Shown here: piece after piece, positions 17,415 to 51,080 of the stretch
Position numbering within the stretch: the stretch's first letter is position 1
How the letters are laid out: each line of letters starts with the position of its first letter
Origin: Candidatus Woesearchaeota archaeon
Lineage (GTDB): Archaea; Nanobdellota; Nanobdellia; Pacearchaeales; GW2011-AR1
Length of the DNA: 64,000 nt
Reading direction: 5' to 3'
NCBI GenBank assembly: GCA_964530945.1
Contig: CAZHCJ010000002.1
Location: forward strand, 14,899 to 78,898
The notes under the pieces: model-generated
The model's database searches: none
What the model saw: only the letters and a program-made list of their open reading frames with translations
Told to the model about the DNA's origin: nothing
Program-made: the position numbers and the translations under genes

Positions 17415-17693
17415 ATTATATAAAGTTTTTGGAAAATGTGTTTTTTAATAAATCTTTTTTATATGGCCAATGTCCAGAACATAGACCATTAACACATTTT
17501 CTTGTATTTCATAAATTGTCCTGTATTTTCCAATTCTTGAACTCTACAATCCCGAGAGGTTTGCAGTCAGCGGTTTTCCAAGACGGGGATTTTCCTCTAA
17601 ATCCATAAACTTCTTTGTTATTCTTTTTTGGGTTTGCTTGTCGAGTTTCTTGAGAAATTTATCTGCCTGTTTTTTCAACTCGACTTTATACAT
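17415..17693 (-). pseudogene. RelE/ParE-family toxin gene disrupted by an in-frame TAG
   Basis: Minus-strand reading MYKVELKKQADKFLKKLDKQTQKRITKKFMDLEENPRLGKPLTANLSGL-TAG-SSRIGKYRTIYEIQENVLMVYVLDIGHIKK; the stop at 17544-17546 sits where RelE/ParE toxins have W in the conserved L.G.L(W)E/S.R.G.YR motif; starts 4 nt after the upstream antitoxin stop. Confidence 0.55.
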
Positions 17694-17694
17694 T

Positions 17695-17952
17695 TCACAT
17701 TCCTAGCCTTTTTTTAACTTCTTCGAGTGGAACGCTTGGAGAAGTATCTTCAAGCGCTTCTTTGATACCCCTCATTAAAGTGGGGTCGCTTAAAACTTCA
17801 ATTGTTTCTATAAGACTGTCTTCGTCTATTTTAGAATTTGCTTTTTTCTCAAGTATTCTTTTGAGAGCATCATTGTAACTTTCGTTAGGATGTATCTTAA
17901 AGGAATCTAATTTGTTCTTAACACTTTTGTTTAGCCTAATTGTTGTTTCCAT
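17695..17952 (-). CDS. antitoxin-like small protein (METTIRL family), partner of the disrupted RelE
   Basis: METTIRLNKSVKNKLDSFKI..ESYNDALKRILE; paralogs at 60587 and 44585 pair with RelE-like toxins; the upstream part of track ORF 17695-18093 overlaps tRNA-Ser and is likely not translated. Confidence 0.6.
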   Translation of the reverse strand: METTIRLNKSVKNKLDSFKIHPNESYNDALKRILEKKANSKIDEDSLIETIEVLSDPTLMRGIKEALEDTSPSVPLEEVKKRLGM

Positions 17953-17996: not shown

Positions 17997-18077
17997 CGCC
18001 CATGGCAGGAATCGAACCTGCGAGCCCAAACGGGCCGACCGTTCCAGGGTCGTGCAATACCACTATGCGACATGGGC
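17997..18077 (-). tRNA. tRNA-Ser (anticodon GGA), type II with long variable arm
   Basis: Minus-strand GCCCATG..anticodon stem CGACC/GGTCG with loop CTGGAAC (GGA)..variable stem-loop GCCCGTTTGGGC..T-arm GCAGG TTCGATT CCTGC..CATGGGC G. Confidence 0.8.
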
Positions 18078-22441: not shown

Positions 22442-23707
22442 ATGATCGACATAAAGTATATTCAGGAAAATCCCAAGGTGATAAAATATTCCGTAAAGGC
22501 AAGAGAGTTGGACGTGAATGTAGATTTACTTTTAAAAAAGTATGAAGAATGGAAAAAACTGAAAAAAGACCTAGATAATTTGCGTAGGGAACGGAATGTT
22601 TTAAGTGAAAAAGTTAATGAAGCAAAGAAAAAGAAAAAAGATTTCAAGAAATTTATAAAGCAGAGTAGAGAAAATAACAAAAAACTTGAGCAGACGGAAA
22701 CAAAAGTAAAAAAAGTTTGGAAAGAGTATGAAAGATTAGCTTACAAAATACCGAATGTACTCCATAAAGATGTTCCTATAAGTGATAAAGATAGGGTTGA
22801 TTGGGAAAGCAAAATCAAGAAACCCAAATTTAATTTTAAACCAAAAACAAATTGGGAAATTCTAGTAGATACAGACATGGCTGATTTCAATAGGGCCATT
22901 AAGGCAGCAGGAGATAGAGGCTGGATGCTAAAAGGAGATGCCGCTAGACTAAATAGAGCCATCACAAATTTTGTTTTGGATTTTTGGAGAAAGAAGGGTT
23001 ATTTTGAATTAATTCCTCCCTATTATGTGAACGAAGAAAATCTTTACATAACAGGGCACTATCCGGGAGGAGAAGAAGAGGTTTACAAAACAGAAGATGG
23101 AAAAGTTTTTGTTGGAACGGGAGAAATTTCTGTTTTGGCAGTTTTCAAAAATGATATTTTCAATAAAAAAGAACTTCCAAAAAAATTCATGTGTTATACT
23201 CCTTGTTATCGTAGAGAGGCGGGGAATCATGCAGATGATAAAGGATTGTATAGAACGCACCAATTTGATAAAGTTGAGCTTACGCATATAACGACCCCGG
23301 AAAAGGAAGAAAAAGAGTACAATCAAATTTTTGAAGATGCAAAAGAGCTTTACAAAATATTGGGTTTGCCACACAGAATCATTACCCATAGAGCAAACGA
23401 TATGCCAAATAAAGCCACCCTAGAAAAAGATATTGAAATTTATATGTCTGCAGAAGAGAGATGGGGGGAAGCAGCAAGTATTGGAATGACGGCAAGTTTT
23501 CAAGCAAGAAGAGGAAACATACAATTTGTTGGGGAAGGAAAAAAAGAATTTGTGCACACGATTTATGCAACAGGAGGCGTGGCAAATAGAATTTTAATAG
23601 CAATTTTAAATAATTTTCAAAACAAAGACGGCTCTGTTAACATTCCAAAAGTTTTACAGAAATATATGGGCAAGAAGAAAATTGTCGGAAAGAAAAAACT
23701 TAAATAA
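22442..23707 (+). CDS. serS: seryl-tRNA synthetase
   Basis: N-terminal coiled coil, class II motifs (ARLNRAITNFVLDFW, FMCYTPCYRREAGNHADDKGLYRTHQFDKVEL, GEGKKEFVHTIYATG). Confidence 0.92.
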   Translation: MIDIKYIQENPKVIKYSVKARELDVNVDLLLKKYEEWKKLKKDLDNLRRERNVLSEKVNEAKKKKKDFKKFIKQSRENNKKLEQTETKVKKVWKEYERLAYKIPNVLHKDVPISDKDRVDWESKIKKPKFNFKPKTNWEILVDTDMADFNRAIKAAGDRGWMLKGDAARLNRAITNFVLDFWRKKGYFELIPPYYVNEENLYITGHYPGGEEEVYKTEDGKVFVGTGEISVLAVFKNDIFNKKELPKKFMCYTPCYRREAGNHADDKGLYRTHQFDKVELTHITTPEKEEKEYNQIFEDAKELYKILGLPHRIITHRANDMPNKATLEKDIEIYMSAEERWGEAASIGMTASFQARRGNIQFVGEGKKEFVHTIYATGGVANRILIAILNNFQNKDGSVNIPKVLQKYMGKKKIVGKKKLK

Positions 23708-23830: not shown

Positions 23831-24010
23831 ATGAGACATGGAGATTATCCTTCATTACTTTCTCACGCAATTAATTTTGCAATTTTTATTTACTTTGCTA
23901 TATTTTTGTTAAAATTAAATGCACTAGATGTGTTTGGATTGTTTATAGCCGCCTTCGGTTTGTTTGTGTCTTTAGTGGCTAACATAATCTCTATAATTGA
24001 GAATCAATAA
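23831..24010 (+). CDS. small membrane peptide (59 aa)
   Basis: ORF below the track threshold; two hydrophobic helices. Confidence 0.25.
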   Translation: MRHGDYPSLLSHAINFAIFIYFAIFLLKLNALDVFGLFIAAFGLFVSLVANIISIIENQ

Positions 24011-24015
24011 ATAAA

Positions 24016-24294
24016 ATGGCAAAAAGAAGAATAATGGCAAACAATAAATTAGACGCTGTGAAGTTTGGCTTGGCTGGAGGGATAGTTGCGGGCTTGTGTG
24101 TCTTTATCACAACTTTGCTTGCTTTGATATCTACAGGCTATGCTGCCAGTTGGACTAGCGCTATAAGCAGCGTATACGGGTTTCTTGGCTACAATATAAG
24201 TTTCGTTGGGGCTATACTTGGAGCAATCTATGCATTCATAGATGGCTTTATCCTTACATGGATTTTTGCCTTGATTTACAACAAGCTTTTGTAA
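24016..24294 (+). CDS. small membrane protein (3 TM)
   Basis: Hydrophobic ORF; opposite-strand ORF 24049-24354 rejected. Confidence 0.4.
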   Translation: MAKRRIMANNKLDAVKFGLAGGIVAGLCVFITTLLALISTGYAASWTSAISSVYGFLGYNISFVGAILGAIYAFIDGFILTWIFALIYNKLL

Positions 24295-24390
24295 ATAGGA
24301 GAAGGAAGCTTTAGAAAATAGAATTTCAGGAACTTGTTGAATTATGGTTTCCACAACCTTTAAAAATAAATTCTATCATAATATTATATT

Positions 24391-24462
24391 GCCTACGTGG
24401 TCTAATGGCTATGACTCATCCCTGTCGCGGATGCGATCCGGGTTCGATTCCCGGCGTGGGCG
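24391..24462 (+). tRNA. tRNA-Asp (anticodon GTC)
   Basis: GCCTACG..D-arm..anticodon stem CATCC/GGATG loop CTGTCGC (GTC)..T-arm CCGGG TTCGATT CCCGG..CGTGGGC G; 72 nt. Confidence 0.85.
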
Positions 24463-24465
24463 TGT
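24452..24465 (+). repeat. direct repeat copy 1 (tRNA-Asp 3' end, CGGCGTGGGCGTGT)
   Basis: 14-mer repeated with 1 mismatch at 25355-25368; GC-rich in an AT-rich genome. Confidence 0.4.
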
Positions 24466-24511
24466 ACGTCTACATGGAAACATTTATAAATAATGTGGAC
24501 GTATATCTTCT

Positions 24512-24976
24512 ATGACATATACTGAAATTAAAAAGAGAAATGGAAAGAAATATTATTATAGGGTTAGATCTGTCAGAAAAGGGAAGAAAGTTCAGAAAGA
24601 AAGAAAATATCTTGGAGTTAATCTTTCTAAAATTGATTTAAGCAAAAAAGAAAAAGAAGCAGATATTTCTTTAAATAGAAATAAAGAAAATAAAGAATTA
24701 GAAAAGATAAAACAGAAAATCAAAGAAGTTCTTAAGAAAAATAAAGTAAAAAGAGCAGGAATATTTGGAAGTTATTCAAGAGGAGATCAACGAAAAAATA
24801 GTGATATTGATATCTTGATTGAAGTAAAAGGAAGAAAATTTAGTTTATTTGATTTAGTTGGACTTGAGATGGAACTAAAAGAAATATTGAAAAGAGATGT
24901 TGATCTTTTAACATATTCTGGAATCCACCCTCTTTTAAAAGAAAGGATATTAAATGAAGAAGTAAGAATAATATGA
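24512..24976 (+). CDS. MNT-type nucleotidyltransferase (HepT/MntA system antitoxin) with K-rich N-terminal extension
   Basis: GIFGSYSRGDQRKNSDIDILIEV ... DLLTY is the minimal nucleotidyltransferase (GSx9-13Dx[DE]) fold. Confidence 0.75.
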   Translation: MTYTEIKKRNGKKYYYRVRSVRKGKKVQKERKYLGVNLSKIDLSKKEKEADISLNRNKENKELEKIKQKIKEVLKKNKVKRAGIFGSYSRGDQRKNSDIDILIEVKGRKFSLFDLVGLEMELKEILKRDVDLLTYSGIHPLLKERILNEEVRII

Positions 24977-25314
24977 AAAAAGATCCTTTAATATTTATTG
25001 AACATATTTTAGAAAGTATTATAGCTATAGAAGAATTTTCTAAAAATATAAGTAAAAAAGAATTAGGTTCAAATAGGTTGATACAAAGTGCAACTGTAAA
25101 AGAGATTGAAATTATTGGGGAAGCCACCAAGAACCTTTCTTTGAATTTCAGAGAAAAATATCCTGAAGTCCCTTGGAATAAAATTGCTGGAACAAGAGAT
25201 AAATTAAGTCATCATTATTTTGGAATCGATATAGGTATCATTTGGGATGTTATCAAAGAAGATATTCCGGTATTAAAAAAACAAATACAAAAAATTAGAA
25301 AGGATTTGGAATAA
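24973..25314 (+). CDS. HepT-like HEPN toxin (DUF86)
   Basis: C-terminal RDKLSHHYFGID (Rx4-6H HEPN motif); overlaps the MNT gene stop by 4 nt. Confidence 0.75.
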   Translation: MKKDPLIFIEHILESIIAIEEFSKNISKKELGSNRLIQSATVKEIEIIGEATKNLSLNFREKYPEVPWNKIAGTRDKLSHHYFGIDIGIIWDVIKEDIPVLKKQIQKIRKDLE

Positions 25315-25354
25315 TTAAAAAATAAACCTAACTGAGACACTTTTATCTCAAGCA

Positions 25355-25368
25355 CGACGTGGGCGTGT
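25355..25368 (+). repeat. direct repeat copy 2 (CGACGTGGGCGTGT), att-like duplicate of the tRNA-Asp 3' end
   Basis: Bounds a roughly 0.9 kb segment carrying the MNT/HepT pair. Confidence 0.4.
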
Positions 25369-25616
25369 TATTGTTTCTTTTTATGATAAAGATCTAAAAT
25401 GTAAATTAGATTTTCATTTTTGAAATATTTATAAGATAATCTAAACGGTTTGATGTACAATTCTCTTGTGCCTTTTCTCACATTCCTCATTGGCTTTCCG
25501 ATTTCAGGATTTTTAGAAATTTTCTTAATTTGTTTAGAAATCTTTTGTTTCAAAGACATGTCTTTTAATTTAGAAAAAATAATTGTGAATTTTTTATCGA
25601 AACGTATCTCTACCAT
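25368..25616 (-). CDS. RelE/ParE-family toxin
   Basis: 82 aa, ...ELYIKPFRLSYKYFKNENLIYILDLYHKKK matches the RelE C-terminal core; overlaps the upstream antitoxin. Confidence 0.65.
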   Translation of the reverse strand: MVEIRFDKKFTIIFSKLKDMSLKQKISKQIKKISKNPEIGKPMRNVRKGTRELYIKPFRLSYKYFKNENLIYILDLYHKKKQ

Positions 25617-25879
25617 TTCATCATTTCTTCTTCGAGATTTTCAGAATCAACACTAATGAATTTTCCAGATTCGATTCTCTTGTATGCTTCTTCAGTTCTT
25701 TTTGCAAATTCTAAGTCTTCTTTAAGAGCTTTATCCATTTCGCTAGCCTTTTTTAAGATTAATTGGTTTTTGTTTTGGATAATCAATAGTTTGTCTCCTG
25801 AGGTTAGGTTCTTTCTCATACTTTGAGGAATAACGATTTGTCCTTTAGAGCTCATCTTGATTACATCAATATTTGTCAT
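25610..25879 (-). CDS. AbrB/MazE/SpoVT-family antitoxin
   Basis: MSSKGQIVIPQSMRKNL swapped-hairpin motif; start taken at the internal ATG 25879. Confidence 0.6.
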   Translation of the reverse strand: MTNIDVIKMSSKGQIVIPQSMRKNLTSGDKLLIIQNKNQLILKKASEMDKALKEDLEFAKRTEEAYKRIESGKFISVDSENLEEEMMKW

Positions 25880-26094
25880 GGTAAGATTAGTCTTACTTAA
25901 TTTATAAATCTTCTTATTTTGTTGTTCTAATTGCGATGCTTCCCTACAAAAACAAACCCTATACTTTATAAACTCAAATTTCAACCATATTATATTACTA
26001 ATGTGAAGGTTCTTGAACATGTTTCAAGGAACCTGTTCAAGAATAGATGATTCTTGATAAACCTCTAACGAGGAATTAAAGTAAGGAGAATAGA

Positions 26095-27483
26095 ATGAAT
26101 AACAAATTTAAGAAATTAGGACTTAGTGAAGATTTGCTTTATATCTTGGATAAAAAAGGTTTTGAAATACCTACGGAAATTCAAGAAAAAGCCATACCTT
26201 TAGTGTTAGAAGGAAAAGATGTAATTGGGGGCTCGGCAACAGGAAGCGGAAAAACTCTTGCGTTTTCTTCTTCAATAATTGAGAATTTAAAGCCTAATGA
26301 AAATGTTCAAGCTTTAATTTTAACCCCTACAAGGGAATTAGCAGAACAGGTTTCTGTTTCAATAAAAGAATTTTCAAAAGGTAAAAATTTGAATGTTGTT
26401 TCTGTTTACGGAGGTGTAAGTATAAACCCTCAAATAAGAAATTTAGCAGTTGCAGATATTGTTGTAGGGACGCCCGGAAGAATTTTAGACCATATACAAA
26501 GAAAAACATTAAGATTAGATAAGATTAATTTTTTAGTTATTGACGAAGTTGACAGGTTGTTTGACATGGGATTTATTGAAGATGTTGAAAAGATAATAAA
26601 CCAGTGTTCAAAAGATAGACAAACAATGCTCTTTTCAGCAACAATCTCCCCAGACGTTCATTATTTAGCTAAGAAATATACTAAAAATCCTATAGAGGTC
26701 TCAGTAGATTCTTATGTTGATTATTCAATGCTTGAACAAGTTTTTTATGATGTCCCAAATCATTTGAAATTTTCATTGCTGGTTCATTTGATGAAAAAAG
26801 AAGATTCTGATTTAATCATGGTTTTTTGTTCTACGAGAAGAAATGTGGATTTCATAAATTATAATTTACAAAAACAAGGAATTAATTCCCAAGCCATTCA
26901 TGGAGGTTTAAACCAAGGCAAAAGAAATAGTGTCATGAAATCTTTTCAAGGAAAAGGTCCTGGCGTTTTAGTTTGTACTGATGTGGCTGCTCGTGGTTTA
27001 GACATTGACAATGTTACGCATGTTTACAATTATGATTTACCTAACTCAAGTAAAGAATATATTCACAGGATTGGGAGGACTGCAAGAGCAGGAAAATCAG
27101 GAAAAGCAATAAATATTTTATCAAGTAGGGATTATGATAATTTTAGAGAAATAATGTCTGATGATTCTTTGAGAATAGAAAGAGAGGATTTGCCTGAGAT
27201 TGAGGTGGTTAGTGTGAGTACAAATTCAACAAGAAGCAGAAGAGGCGGAAGCAGAGGACGTAGCGGTAGCAGAAATTACAAAGGGAACAAAGGAAAATAT
27301 AAAGGAAGAAATTCAAGAAAAAGGAATAGCAGAGGCGGAAACAGAAAAGGAAACAAAGGCTCTGGAGGAAAAGGCGGTTATCAAGGTGGAAAAAGAAGTA
27401 GGGGAAAAGGGAAGAAAAGAAAATTCAATAAAAAAAGAGACCCTCGAGGAGGAATGTATGCCCAACCTCGTGGGCGATGTTGA
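26095..27483 (+). CDS. DEAD-box RNA helicase with Arg/Gly/Lys-rich C-terminal tail
   Basis: Q-motif, GSGKTLAF, DEVD, SAT, HRIGRTARAG; tail RSRRGGSRGRSGSRNYKGNKG. Confidence 0.9.
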   Translation: MNNKFKKLGLSEDLLYILDKKGFEIPTEIQEKAIPLVLEGKDVIGGSATGSGKTLAFSSSIIENLKPNENVQALILTPTRELAEQVSVSIKEFSKGKNLNVVSVYGGVSINPQIRNLAVADIVVGTPGRILDHIQRKTLRLDKINFLVIDEVDRLFDMGFIEDVEKIINQCSKDRQTMLFSATISPDVHYLAKKYTKNPIEVSVDSYVDYSMLEQVFYDVPNHLKFSLLVHLMKKEDSDLIMVFCSTRRNVDFINYNLQKQGINSQAIHGGLNQGKRNSVMKSFQGKGPGVLVCTDVAARGLDIDNVTHVYNYDLPNSSKEYIHRIGRTARAGKSGKAINILSSRDYDNFREIMSDDSLRIEREDLPEIEVVSVSTNSTRSRRGGSRGRSGSRNYKGNKGKYKGRNSRKRNSRGGNRKGNKGSGGKGGYQGGKRSRGKGKKRKFNKKRDPRGGMYAQPRGRC

Positions 27484-27953: not shown

Positions 27954-29879
27954 TTATCTCTCTTTTCTCTGCAACTTTCTAACCGCATCTAAAACTCTTA
28001 TGTCTGGAGAAAGAATATAGACGTGGTCGTTAGGGCTGCGTAGAGCTCTATATATTCTCTGAAGGAATTCACGCCAGGCTTTGTCACGATAAAATTCCCA
28101 ATAGTAATCTTTATGTGTTTTTTGAAGAACTTTCCAAAAAGTATCGGACACGTTTGGATTGGGGTATTTTGTGAAAATTATTGAACGACAAATCTTGCCA
28201 GGGAAGTCTACACCACGAGAGCATTTAGTGCTGAATAATTTTTTTTGAACGCCTTGTTTGAAATCCGATACTGCCTTGCCTGTTTTATCTTCTCCTTGAG
28301 CAATTTTTATTTCTTCTACACTTGTTATGTGGTCTAAGTCAAAGAGTTCTTTTTCTTTTTCAGTAGGCAAATCTTTGTATGCAGTTACGTGGATTAGTGC
28401 AGGAATTTCTGCGGCTTTTATTGAGGCTGACAAAGCATCGAGATAATCTACGCGTTCTTTTTCTCCCGATTTGAATGTAGAATAACGACAATCAAATTCT
28501 TTTCCCGTCATTATTATTTCTGTTGAACCAAAGTTTAAATCTTCGGCGATAACTTTAGCAAAGTTTTCAATTTTGAATATATTTTTTATTATACTGTCGC
28601 TGTGAAGTGTGCCTGACATGAAAATAAGAGTTTTTGTTTTGTCTAAAAGGTCTTGGAACTTTCCAGAGATATCTGTACTTACAAGTTTAACAATTATGTT
28701 TTCTTCGTTACTATCCTCTTTCTTTTCTTTTCTGTATGTGAGGTAAAGTTTCTTCATTGTGTGTTTAAAATCTCTCGCTACCTCTAATGCGTTGTTCGCA
28801 TAGTTCATTTCATCGATAGAAATTTCTGCTTCAAGTTCATCGTTTGAAGTGAATTCTTCTAAAACATCTTTTATTTTTGTATCTTTAACATGTAGAACGG
28901 CATTTTTGTCTACTCCGATAGCTTTTTTATTTTGTAATTCCAATTCAATTAATCGTTTTATCTTGTCTAAGGAGCGTTGAGCTTTTGGAGATTCTGGATG
29001 TATCGTTTTTATATTTGAGAGCAAGCGTGTGAGGTTTAATTCATCTTGTTGGAAGAATTGATCCAAGAATTCGTCTGCTTCATCTATTATGTCTACTTCT
29101 GTTAAGGGTTTGCGTCCCATCACCATCTCAGTACGGTATTTTGCCGAATTGAAAATCATTGCGTCTGCATCAAGATAAGCTTCATATTGGTCATAATAAC
29201 TACAACCTGGTTTTCTATGGTAAAATACAAAAGTCTCTCCTGAAACCCCTTTGTAGCGTCTTTTACGTGCGTCTGTTAAGGTCTTTAACTCAAAACTTGA
29301 TGGTAAAATGGGGCTCCAGTAAGGGTTTGCTCCTGCGACTGCAGCACGTCTAAGATTATTCATGCTTATCCCTCTGTGATGGTCCATGAATGGGTTGTCT
29401 CTGACGTACTCTCTGATTCTATCTAAGTTTTTATCTACGAGTTTTATGTTCTCTGGCAATTCGAGGGAGGCACAGCTTTTTCCTGGAATAAAAACAGAGT
29501 CGTGGTTGTCTTTTCCAGTAATCATCGAAATTTTCATTTTTTTTCCATTAGTTTTTTTCAAATATTTGTCTTTTATGTAATCTTCTTCGTATTGTCTTTG
29601 TAAGGCTTTAACAGGCACCACTATAGAAGCTTTGCCAAGTGCACGAGCCACGTTTAACGCTATTGCACTTTTGCCACTACCACAAGTCCCGTGTAAGAAA
29701 ATTACTTTATACTCTTTAGTTTTTTCTAAAATCTCTTTGACAACATCTTCTTGAGTCTTTCCATTACTAAATTTTAATGGCTCTAAAGAGACATCTCCAC
29801 GGTATAAACTCCAATAGGGATTTTCAAAAATATCTAATGTTGGTTTATGATTTTGAATTTGCCTCTTTTTTTCTTTCAT
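27954..29879 (-). CDS. SF2 helicase of the Rad3/XPD/DinG family, apparently without the Fe-S domain
   Basis: Walker A FLHGTCGSGKSAIAL, DEAD-like IIDEADEF, C-terminal motif VI SRGVDFPGKICRSIIFTKYPNPN ... RALRSPNDHVYILSPDIRV typical of DinG/XPD; no 4-Cys cluster between motifs I and II. Confidence 0.6.
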   Translation of the reverse strand: MKEKKRQIQNHKPTLDIFENPYWSLYRGDVSLEPLKFSNGKTQEDVVKEILEKTKEYKVIFLHGTCGSGKSAIALNVARALGKASIVVPVKALQRQYEEDYIKDKYLKKTNGKKMKISMITGKDNHDSVFIPGKSCASLELPENIKLVDKNLDRIREYVRDNPFMDHHRGISMNNLRRAAVAGANPYWSPILPSSFELKTLTDARKRRYKGVSGETFVFYHRKPGCSYYDQYEAYLDADAMIFNSAKYRTEMVMGRKPLTEVDIIDEADEFLDQFFQQDELNLTRLLSNIKTIHPESPKAQRSLDKIKRLIELELQNKKAIGVDKNAVLHVKDTKIKDVLEEFTSNDELEAEISIDEMNYANNALEVARDFKHTMKKLYLTYRKEKKEDSNEENIIVKLVSTDISGKFQDLLDKTKTLIFMSGTLHSDSIIKNIFKIENFAKVIAEDLNFGSTEIIMTGKEFDCRYSTFKSGEKERVDYLDALSASIKAAEIPALIHVTAYKDLPTEKEKELFDLDHITSVEEIKIAQGEDKTGKAVSDFKQGVQKKLFSTKCSRGVDFPGKICRSIIFTKYPNPNVSDTFWKVLQKTHKDYYWEFYRDKAWREFLQRIYRALRSPNDHVYILSPDIRVLDAVRKLQRKER

Positions 29880-36109: not shown

Positions 36110-36578
36110 GTTTCATATAAGAATATGATGCTTATAAAGTTTATGAGGTTTTTGTGTATTCTATAATCTAAACCTTTTGATTTTGCCACAATAATCATCT
36201 TGAAAAATCTAGAAAACAGAGTTTCTTGACCCAAAAAATCAAAGCATTTTTTGAGTATTAGACAAAACCAAAACTTTATCACAATAATGTTTAAATAAGG
36301 AACACTGATTATTTTAGTTATGGGTGTAAGTATATGTCCTCGTGCCAATTCTTGTAGGGCTTACAGTTTTTATAAAGTTTTTACTGGGGATGAAACAAAT
36401 GGAAATGTTTTGAAGAGAGACGAACGTGGCCATTATAATTGTAGAGCGTTGGAAGTTGCTAGAAGCACAACTTCTGATAAATCGATAAAGTGTCCCGGTT
36501 ATCTAAAGAGCATAAATAAAGAGATTTTGAGTGAAGGAGGAGGTTTAGTATGGTTAATGGGGGGCTCGACGACTTAAA

Positions 36579-50861: not shown

Positions 50862-51080
50862 ATGAAAATAGACACAACGAAGATGAGTTCTAGAGGACAA
50901 ATAGTTATTCCTAGAGATTTACGCGAAGGCATAAATGCAGGAGAAAAATTGATAGTTATAAGGAAAAAAGACGAAATAATATTGAAAAAATCACTTCCTG
51001 AGAATGCCTTATGGTCTGAAAAATCTTTGTCAAAAACGTGGCTGAATAAAGAGGAAGACGAAATATGGAAAGATTTGTGA
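50862..51080 (+). CDS. mazE: MazE/AbrB-family antitoxin
   Basis: MSSRGQIVIPRDLRE. Confidence 0.6.
   Translation: MKIDTTKMSSRGQIVIPRDLREGINAGEKLIVIRKKDEIILKKSLPENALWSEKSLSKTWLNKEEDEIWKDL

Follow-up and report, generated by a model that had tools for sequence, protein, structure and literature searches.

The window analysed here, a 64-kb stretch of contig CAZHCJ010000002.1 from a Candidatus Woesearchaeota archaeon, holds an intact tRNA-Asp(GTC) gene whose 3' end is repeated about 0.9 kb downstream. Between the tRNA and its repeat lies a toxin-antitoxin operon, which consists of an MntA-like minimal nucleotidyltransferase (MNT) and a HepT (HEPN) RNase. A second toxin-antitoxin pair, formed by an AbrB/MazE-type antitoxin and a ParE/RelE-family toxin, begins at the distal repeat and lies outside the repeat-bracketed segment; the TAA stop codon of its toxin gene (25368-25370) shares a base with the 3' end of the repeat. 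This arrangement had been proposed by a first-pass annotation made from the letters alone, according to which the tRNA's final 11 nt and 3 nt beyond them recur downstream, the MNT/HepT pair stands alone between the two copies, and a pair of AbrB and RelE type starts at the distal one. All three statements could be confirmed, the first by ARAGORN, Rfam and a match of 13 out of 14 positions, the others by the content of open reading frames (ORFs) and Pfam domains. A segment that begins at a complete tRNA gene and finishes with a directly repeated copy of the tRNA 3' end has the anatomy of an element flanked by attachment (att) sites. We consider it likely that the 14-nt repeat is the core of an att-site pair which arose when a site-specific recombinase acted on the tRNA-Asp(GTC) 3' end.

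The tRNA was called at 24390-24463 by ARAGORN and one nucleotide shorter at either end by Rfam (Table 1). Its proximal core copy CGGCGTGGGCGTGT and the distal copy CGACGTGGGCGTGT contain an exact shared block, CGTGGGCGTGT, at 24455-65 and 25358-68. When up to two mismatches were allowed on either strand, these two copies of the 14-mer were the only ones in all 64 kb. One would expect 0.01 matches from shuffles of the window, and none of 100 shuffles reached two matches. Calculated from base composition, the expectation for a match of 13/14 positions within 5 kb downstream is 7e-5, rising to 1.5e-3 once any of the 17 registers around the tRNA end may be used. Furthermore, in 1.17 Mb of related loci (designated by L numbers) the 11-mer GGCGTGGGCGT is confined to the 3' ends of tRNA-Asp genes plus one distal copy in locus L102. 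With two copies in the window and this distribution among the relatives, the repeat is not a common GC-rich word, one of the findings that the first-pass annotation had named as fatal to its proposal.

A longer element of about 42 nt (25327-25368, CCTAACTGAGACACTTTTATCTCAAGCACGACGTGGGCGTGT) has the distal repeat as its 3' terminus. This element is composed of an arm of about 28 nt, which shows no homology to the tRNA body, and of the core that it has in common with the tRNA end. Arm plus core can be written as the pattern CCTAACTGRGACACTTTNNTCNCANNCNCGRCGTGG. An nhmmer profile of four copies detected only these 4 as true copies in 1.17 Mb of related DNA, with E-values from 2e-10 to 2e-12, and no others in the window or in 116 other loci. 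The three copies besides that of the window are all located in L102, at about 1445, 1913 and 3048, where CCTAACTGGGACACTTTCTTCCCACCCTCGGCGTGG (about 40 nt) occurs in direct orientation, each time just past the stop codon of its cargo. The cargoes are unrelated and consist of a 184-aa ORF, of a 114-aa ORF, and of a TrmB gene on the minus strand plus a 75-aa ORF. The arms of the three copies are identical over 38 nt. The third copy ends in CGGCGTGGGCGTA, which is the L102 tRNA end plus 2 nt of its trailer, and in a k-mer scan of L102 this tRNA-Asp 3' end was found repeated 2.25 kb downstream. Because the same arm and core bound three small unrelated cassettes in L102, tRNA-Asp appears to have been used repeatedly as a landing place by att sites of a single family. 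Elsewhere in the 64-kb window no further true copy of the arm was found; two arm-like matches, at 36487 and 40035, were rejected as chance matches inside genes.

The nucleotides that follow the mature tRNA agree within each genome, being TGT at both copies in the window and TA at both in L102. Therefore, the copies should have arisen by duplication of the local target at the DNA level. Selection for a tRNA-like shape cannot explain a match to each genome's own trailer, whereas recombination that duplicates the local target does. The outer flanks were compared with the tRNA trailers of relatives as well. The 24 nt past the distal copy (TGTTATTGTTTCTTT...) resemble the trailer of L102 (alignment score 11, p about 0.0003 against random 24-mers) and that of L107 (score 10, p about 0.001, likewise against random 24-mers), but the tRNA-proximal flank (ACGTCTACATGG...) resembles none of the relatives' trailers. 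A likeness at the distal flank only fits an attL made of tRNA, core and element and an attR made of arm, core and original trailer. The cassette also differs in composition: its G+C content is 26.7%, compared to 34.1% for the window, and falls into the lowest 0.5% of the window's 900-nt stretches. Its left end carries an 11-nt inverted repeat, TACGTCTACAT/ATGTGGACGTA, with arms that are 91% complementary and stand 17 nt apart around a TATA-like TTTATAAATA (24483-24492). The left end probably contains the cassette's own promoter together with a toxin-antitoxin operator, and the cassette is self-contained.

The 92-aa, DUF5676-like membrane protein encoded directly upstream of tRNA-Asp proved to be a good anchor for comparing gene order. 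Homologues that are 58-72% identical, followed by a tRNA-Asp(GTC) on the same strand, were found in L099-L101, L102, L103-L106 and L107-L109; all these comparators are thus distant. The gene for seryl-tRNA synthetase (SerRS) lies directly upstream of the membrane-protein/tRNA pair in L099 and L103/L104, while two extra genes separate them in L107-L109. The order in L102 is the same as in the window, with the C-terminus of SerRS, two small membrane proteins and a near-identical tRNA-Asp. Since the adjacency of membrane protein and tRNA is conserved in relatives, the position of the tRNA is ancestral. The sequence 3' of it is different in every lineage: two toxin-antitoxin pairs in the window, hypothetical genes in L102, in L103 ParA-like genes, with some further 7.5 kb separating them from the helicase, and the cysteinyl-tRNA synthetase (CysRS) gene in L107-L109. 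In the latter loci the same tRNA 3' end is followed directly by a T-rich trailer and CysRS, without the element. The MNT/HepT segment is absent behind their tRNA, and L099, L102 and L103 have other sequence there (all within the relatives of 58-72% identity). Distant as they are, L107-L109 serve as an empty-site reference at the level of the family.

In the closest syntenic relative (72% identical), two contigs stop precisely with the last nucleotide of tRNA-Asp and a third one 41 nt later. These breaks come from three independent assemblies (the contig ends of L100 and L101, and L099 10387-10428). As assemblers break contigs at polymorphisms within a population and at repeated sequences, they suggest population-level variation or a repeat that starts exactly at the tRNA 3' end. 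Three other approaches to the synteny were dropped. With SerRS as anchor, L001 and L090-L095 (81-86% identical) have neither a tRNA nor a toxin-antitoxin pair downstream and are uninformative. The DEAD-box helicase, used as anchor in a scan of metagenomes, gave at most 58% identity, and L012 was the sole locus with a tRNA-Asp, on the opposite strand. The P0194 and P0210 contexts (L112-L116) are without a tRNA and say nothing on the att question.

Table 1. Features of the tRNA-Asp locus; positions refer to the 64-kb window, and att designations are putative.
Feature	Position	Strand	Remark
SerRS (seryl-tRNA synthetase)	22442-23707		upstream of tRNA-Asp
Two small membrane proteins	23831-24010 and 24016-24294		between SerRS and tRNA-Asp
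tRNA-Asp(GTC), intact	24391-24462	+	Rfam RF00005, 58.4 bits; putative integration target (attB/attL left side)
Proximal core copy (putative attL)	24452-24465	+	CGGCGTGGGCGTGT; last 11 nt of tRNA-Asp plus TGT
Left end of cassette	24465-24503	+	inverted repeat TACGTCTACAT/ATGTGGACGTA around TATA-like TTTATAAATA
MntA-like minimal nucleotidyltransferase (antitoxin)	24512-24976	+	Pfam NTP_transf_2, 1.6e-17
HepT (HEPN) RNase toxin	24973-25314	+	Pfam HepT-like, 5e-27
Putative element-specific P arm of the distal att site	25327-25354	+	CCTAACTGAGACACTTTTATCTCAAGCA; conserved with three L102 copies
Distal core copy (putative attR)	25355-25368	+	CGACGTGGGCGTGT
T-rich flank, presumed displaced ancestral trailer (B')	25369-25380	+	TATTGTTTCTTT
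ParE/RelE-family toxin	25368-25616	-	Pfam ParE_toxin, 1.5e-7
AbrB/MazE-type antitoxin	25610-25879	-	Pfam MazE_antitoxin, 2.4e-6; partner of the ParE toxin
DEAD-box helicase	26095-27483		
XPD-like helicase	27954-29879	-	

The cargo corresponds to a HepT/MntA system of type VII, in which a HEPN toxin with an Rx4-6H motif is encoded in one operon with a minimal nucleotidyltransferase of the GSX10DXD type. In systems of this type MntA neutralises HepT by adenylylating it. The nucleotidyltransferase gene comes first, and the start of HepT overlaps its stop codon (ATGA). The MNT protein shows GSxxRG at G86-G91 and DxD at D98/D100, and the Rx4H motif of HepT could be read from the translation as R75-H80. 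Pfam domains, catalytic motifs and the overlapping two-gene operon with the nucleotidyltransferase in front are thus those of known type VII systems. In contrast to these, both proteins pass the thresholds of Pfam but stay below the NCBIfam equivalog cut-offs of 60 (MntA_antitoxin 54.7 bits; HepT 29 bits), and MNT has an additional conserved N-terminal domain of about 45 aa. An exact look-up of the MNT protein returned no record. The N-terminal extension (24512-24650, residues 1-45) matches no Pfam family and is conserved within an MNT subfamily of about a dozen representatives of 50%-identity clusters, with the pattern M.YTE.K..N.K.Y.YRV.S.RKG.KV.K.R.YLG.NL. AlphaFold, given the single MNT sequence, produced a poor model (pLDDT 53) that was not used for a fold search; it contains a beta-hairpin at residues 3-17, with low confidence. 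The extension may be a DNA-binding part which recognises the palindromic operator.

Pfam searches covered the cassette and most window ORFs of at least 150 aa, and this scope applies to all statements on recombinases made here. No integrase or recombinase was detected in them, as the first-pass annotation had noted, and MNT and HepT are the sole ORFs inside the cassette. Two large window ORFs without a Pfam match appear, by eye, to code for a surface protein and a lytic-transglycosylase-like protein. An ORF beside a tRNA-Ser in L099 that had seemed integrase-like was dropped for lack of Pfam support. Relatives of MNT on viral contigs match with only 35% over the domain.

The element, the trailer match, the distal flank, the composition and the variable downstream region all support the first-pass annotation in its view that an insertion at the tRNA-Asp 3' end left the repeat behind as an att-like scar. 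Its further proposal, that a larger islet decayed here and lost its integrase, finds no support, as nothing shows that an integrase was ever inside. That recombination took place, in which direction and by what recombinase, we infer as follows. A cassette of about 0.9 kb, consisting of its own promoter and operator, the MntA-like/HepT operon, the element-specific arm of about 28 nt and finally the core, would have been inserted. A recombinase acting in trans would have joined this small arm-core cassette, either circular or carried by donor DNA, to the core at the tRNA-Asp end. The insertion would have rebuilt the tRNA end (attL), and the original tRNA end with its T-rich trailer would have been displaced 903 nt downstream, behind the arm (attR, 25327-25380). 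For the empty site this predicts the junction ...CCCGGCGTGGGCGTGT/TATTGTTTCTTTTTATG (tRNA...GCGTGT-TATTGTTTCTTT), and for a circle the junction ...CAAGCACGACGTGGGCGTGT/ACGTCTACATGG (...arm-core-ACGTCTACAT). Because the cassette encodes no recombinase, it would be a cis-mobilizable unit that needs an integrase in trans, or one that has since been lost. It shares with cis-mobilizable elements (CIMEs) that attL and attR are both kept and that genes for integration and transfer are absent, and the distal core keeps the arm that is common to L102. The three tiny L102 cassettes with arms identical over 38 nt favour integrase-less cassettes moved in trans rather than a decayed island.

Several results weigh against site-specific recombination. 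Besides the negative Pfam search for an integrase, the element and the tRNA end are both absent from IMG/VR, the element is absent from phage and plasmid collections, the matches that did appear in these searches were chance ones in coding sequences, and no circular or attP form was found in any of these collections. No near-identical strain with an empty site was found, the comparators being 58-72% identical in the neighbouring protein; therefore, the insertion is deduced and not directly seen. The element is carried by two genomes only, and its exact core amounts to just 11-14 nt. The position of the arm directly past stop codons and a small hairpin with one compensatory change make a role at the RNA level possible. 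In L102, two of the three copies keep the arm and CGGCGTGG(G) without the last 4-5 nt of the core, and the ancestral-looking trailer ATTGTTTCTTT adjoins the tRNA, not the distal end. A single, simple attP x attB event accounts for neither the position of this trailer nor the shortened cores. Both tentatively suggest a crossover inside the core, with arm-core sites serving as targets for insertion in addition to the tRNA. Such behaviour would be integron-like.

Among the alternatives, the strongest is that the element of about 42 nt is an RNA-level signal, for instance a 3' untranslated region, a terminator or a processing site, which partly mimics the tRNA 3' end and is conserved for its function. 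All four copies are located on the coding strand, 0-19 nt past stop codons, and those of L102 do not differ from each other over 38 nt. The copies can form a 5-bp hairpin that reads TGGGA...TCCCA in L102 and TGAGA...TCTCA in the window and thus contains one compensatory change. However, the folding energies are unremarkable (z from -0.6 to -2.3), and a search of Rfam yielded no family that matches the element, the tRNA being the sole match. In 64 kb and 1.17 Mb of relatives the element is confined to the regions downstream of tRNA-Asp, and the shared block runs past the mature tRNA end in agreement with each genome's own trailer. From two of the copies in L102 the nucleotides of the acceptor end are missing, therefore tRNA mimicry is not preserved. 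On balance we regard an RNA signal as unlikely.

The reading of the element as a split tRNA or a tRNA 3' half was rejected, as it has no T-loop consensus and no match to the tRNA model. The layout of the element's arm (25327-25368) loosely mirrors that of the variable loop and T-arm of tRNA-Asp: TAAC, a 5-bp stem, an 8-nt loop and again a 5-bp stem, compared to TAAC, CCGGG, a 7-nt loop and CCCGG in the tRNA. It is a speculative resemblance; on this view the arm might go back to a tRNA 3' half that has diverged strongly.

The cassette could also have entered without site specificity, by microhomology-mediated recombination or by homologous recombination with DNA of a related strain, with the GC-rich tRNA end being used by chance. 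The shortness of the shared block (11-14 nt) and the lack of a recombinase among the ORFs tested would be in agreement with this. Yet the same arm precedes the core at four independent junctions, with unrelated cargo and in two genomes, which is the mark of a defined site rather than of microhomology met by accident. We therefore hold this route to be improbable.

A third possibility is an array of integron cassettes, more precisely a cluster of attC sites lacking integron-integrases (CALIN), with the element as attC site. Integrons and integrase-less attC clusters are known in Archaea, including Nanoarchaeota, and as in the locus described here they comprise small unrelated cassettes that each end in a similar repeat, sites more alike within than between genomes, and toxin-antitoxin cassettes as common cargo (PMC9668308). 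Here, too, near-identical repeats are placed after ORFs, and the beginning of the element, ACCTAAC, fits the inverse-core consensus RYYYAAC. The R''/R' pair of an attC site is missing, however, since a GTTRRRY (R') box is absent from the surroundings of all four copies up to a distance of 160 nt and GTTAGG occurs nowhere in L102. There is no adjacent IntI, which a CALIN would not require, and the upstream genes are SerRS and two small membrane proteins in the window and in L102. Unlike integron cassettes, those found here appear to have their own promoters, and one of them contains a gene on the opposite strand. Also not an integron feature is the anchoring of the array at a tRNA 3' end, with which each site has its last 8-13 nt in common. 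We hold an integron or CALIN to be very unlikely.

Casposons are known to generate 14-15-bp duplications at tRNA 3' ends. A target-site duplication by a transposon or casposon would accordingly suit a 14-nt repeat at this position, but this explanation is the least credible of those so far considered. Terminal inverted repeats inside the duplicated target are missing (best local score between the cassette ends 7, which 469 of 500 shuffles reached as well), and their lack effectively refutes it. Conservation is limited to one end of the cassettes, and Pfam revealed no Cas1, PolB or transposase in the window ORFs tested. Chance recurrence of a GC-rich word, to which only the shortness of the repeat lends any colour, is already refuted by the expectations of 0.01 per window and 7e-5 within 5 kb and by the same arrangement in L102.

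We come back to site-specific recombination and to the systems known to practise it. Archaeal elements of the SSV and pNOB8 types use tRNA genes as integration targets. Part of the tRNA is directly repeated afterwards, and remnants of the elements can stay trapped in archaeal chromosomes. These elements carry an integrase gene, which in the SSV type is split by the integration. In contrast, Pfam detects neither an integrase nor a fragment of one here.

The closest documented anatomy would be that of the tandem ssrA islands of Dehalococcoides, in which direct repeats of the target 3' end each follow a conserved motif without homology to the target (PMC3146451). Some of those islands are without integration genes and were interpreted as cis-mobilizable (PMC3146451). 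In both cases the target is the 3' end of a gene for a small structured RNA, direct repeats bound each island, and islands stand in tandem. The differences are that the units described here are far smaller (0.5-1.1 kb with one or two genes), that the host is a DPANN archaeon and the target tRNA-Asp, that the core has 11-14 nt instead of 20 bp, and that no cognate recombinase was found. CIMEs and their site-specific accretion, known from the ICESt1/ICESt3 family of Streptococcus, resemble the locus in that attL and attR flank a unit without genes for integration or transfer and in that repeated use of att at the end of a target gene builds tandem arrays (reviewed in PMC5704250). However, CIMEs are defined as decayed integrative conjugative or integrative mobilizable elements of bacteria, and there is no sign here of decay from a larger element. 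A partner element of either kind was not found for this cassette in the IMG/VR, phage and plasmid collections.

Insertion at a tRNA end is an ordinary kind of event. Less ordinary is the arm-plus-core site, which defines a family of small cassettes behind tRNA-Asp. As a bolder extension we raise the possibility, at present doubtful, that tRNA-Asp in this lineage of Woesearchaeota anchors an integron-like cassette platform of a new type. Equally tentatively, its cassettes would be units of 0.5-1.1 kb with promoters of their own, each ending in a conserved site of about 40 nt whose last 8-13 nt copy the tRNA 3' end. It is conceivable, with the same reservation, that a recombinase encoded elsewhere inserts, stacks and possibly excises them, giving a hypervariable array behind an essential tRNA. 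Gene gain and loss in the tiny genomes of DPANN archaea are little understood, and at this locus an addiction or defence module, HepT/MntA, would have entered via a defined site at tRNA-Asp. Should the pattern turn out to be general, arm plus core behind tRNA-Asp would offer a DNA signature by which a gene-flux hot-spot in Woesearchaeota can be searched for, and would point to a recombinase working in trans. For annotation it means that the distal 14-mer should be labelled as a fragment of a tRNA or as an att site, and that MNT and HepT should be treated as accessory genes acquired by horizontal transfer.

Of the 32 tRNAs present in the examined loci, four have a repeat of their 3' end of at least 11 nt downstream on the same strand, and none has one upstream. 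Scars of this type appear to be common in these archaea. Two of the four are on other DPANN contigs: in L020 (3640-3780, minus strand) a 21-nt repeat of the tRNA-Leu(TAA) 3' end is located 105 nt downstream, and in L004 (3220-3310) a 12-nt repeat of the tRNA-Ala(CGC) 3' end is located 58 nt downstream; no gene is enclosed in either. In L102, a 12-nt direct repeat GAGTAGTAAGAT/GAGTAGTAACAT at 712-723 and 839-850 flanks tRNA-Asp and may be due to chance. The sole other tRNA of the window, tRNA-Ser(GGA) at 17997-18077 on the minus strand, is directly followed by a toxin-antitoxin pair on the same strand, composed of a VapB-like antitoxin (17695-17952) and a ParE-like toxin (17454-17693). The ORF of the latter has an in-frame TAG and may be a pseudogene. 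The promoter of this pair contains a palindrome, ATACCTAT/ATAGGTAT. The tRNA-Ser flank TTTTCCAcAAA recurs past the toxin as TTTTCCAaAAA, a weak repeat which may be a chance occurrence.

The AbrB/ParE pair next to the distal repeat has counterparts elsewhere. In L115 (2190-2713) and L116 (1676-2199) which represent another lineage, genes for an AbrB/MazE antitoxin and a ParE toxin come directly after that of the homologous small membrane protein, without an intervening tRNA, and the ParE of this lineage is 39% identical to that of the window. A second AbrB-like N-terminal domain at 50868-50993 of the window, adjoining a MarR-like ORF, shows 52% identity over 42 aa to the antitoxin at 25610-25879. 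The window encodes a SerRS with 81% identity to the enzyme of a 'Candidatus Woesearchaeota' metagenome-assembled genome, which indicates a Woesearchaeota-like DPANN archaeon as the source. On the other side of the locus, L096-L098 (75-78% identical) have kept the genes downstream of the DEAD-box helicase; upstream they have genes for a Na/Pi transporter or DUF2283 proteins and no tRNA. According to alignments with L096 and L098, homology to these helicase-anchored relatives resumes only at about 25955. The leader of the helicase gene is conserved (25955-26094 in the window, 1040-1196 in L096, about 2200-2355 in L098). It contains a palindrome, TTCTTGAACATGTT/AACCTGTTCAAGAA (26010-26043), and a second repeat, TCAAGAAT/ATTCTTGA, and could be an operator or a structured 5' untranslated region.

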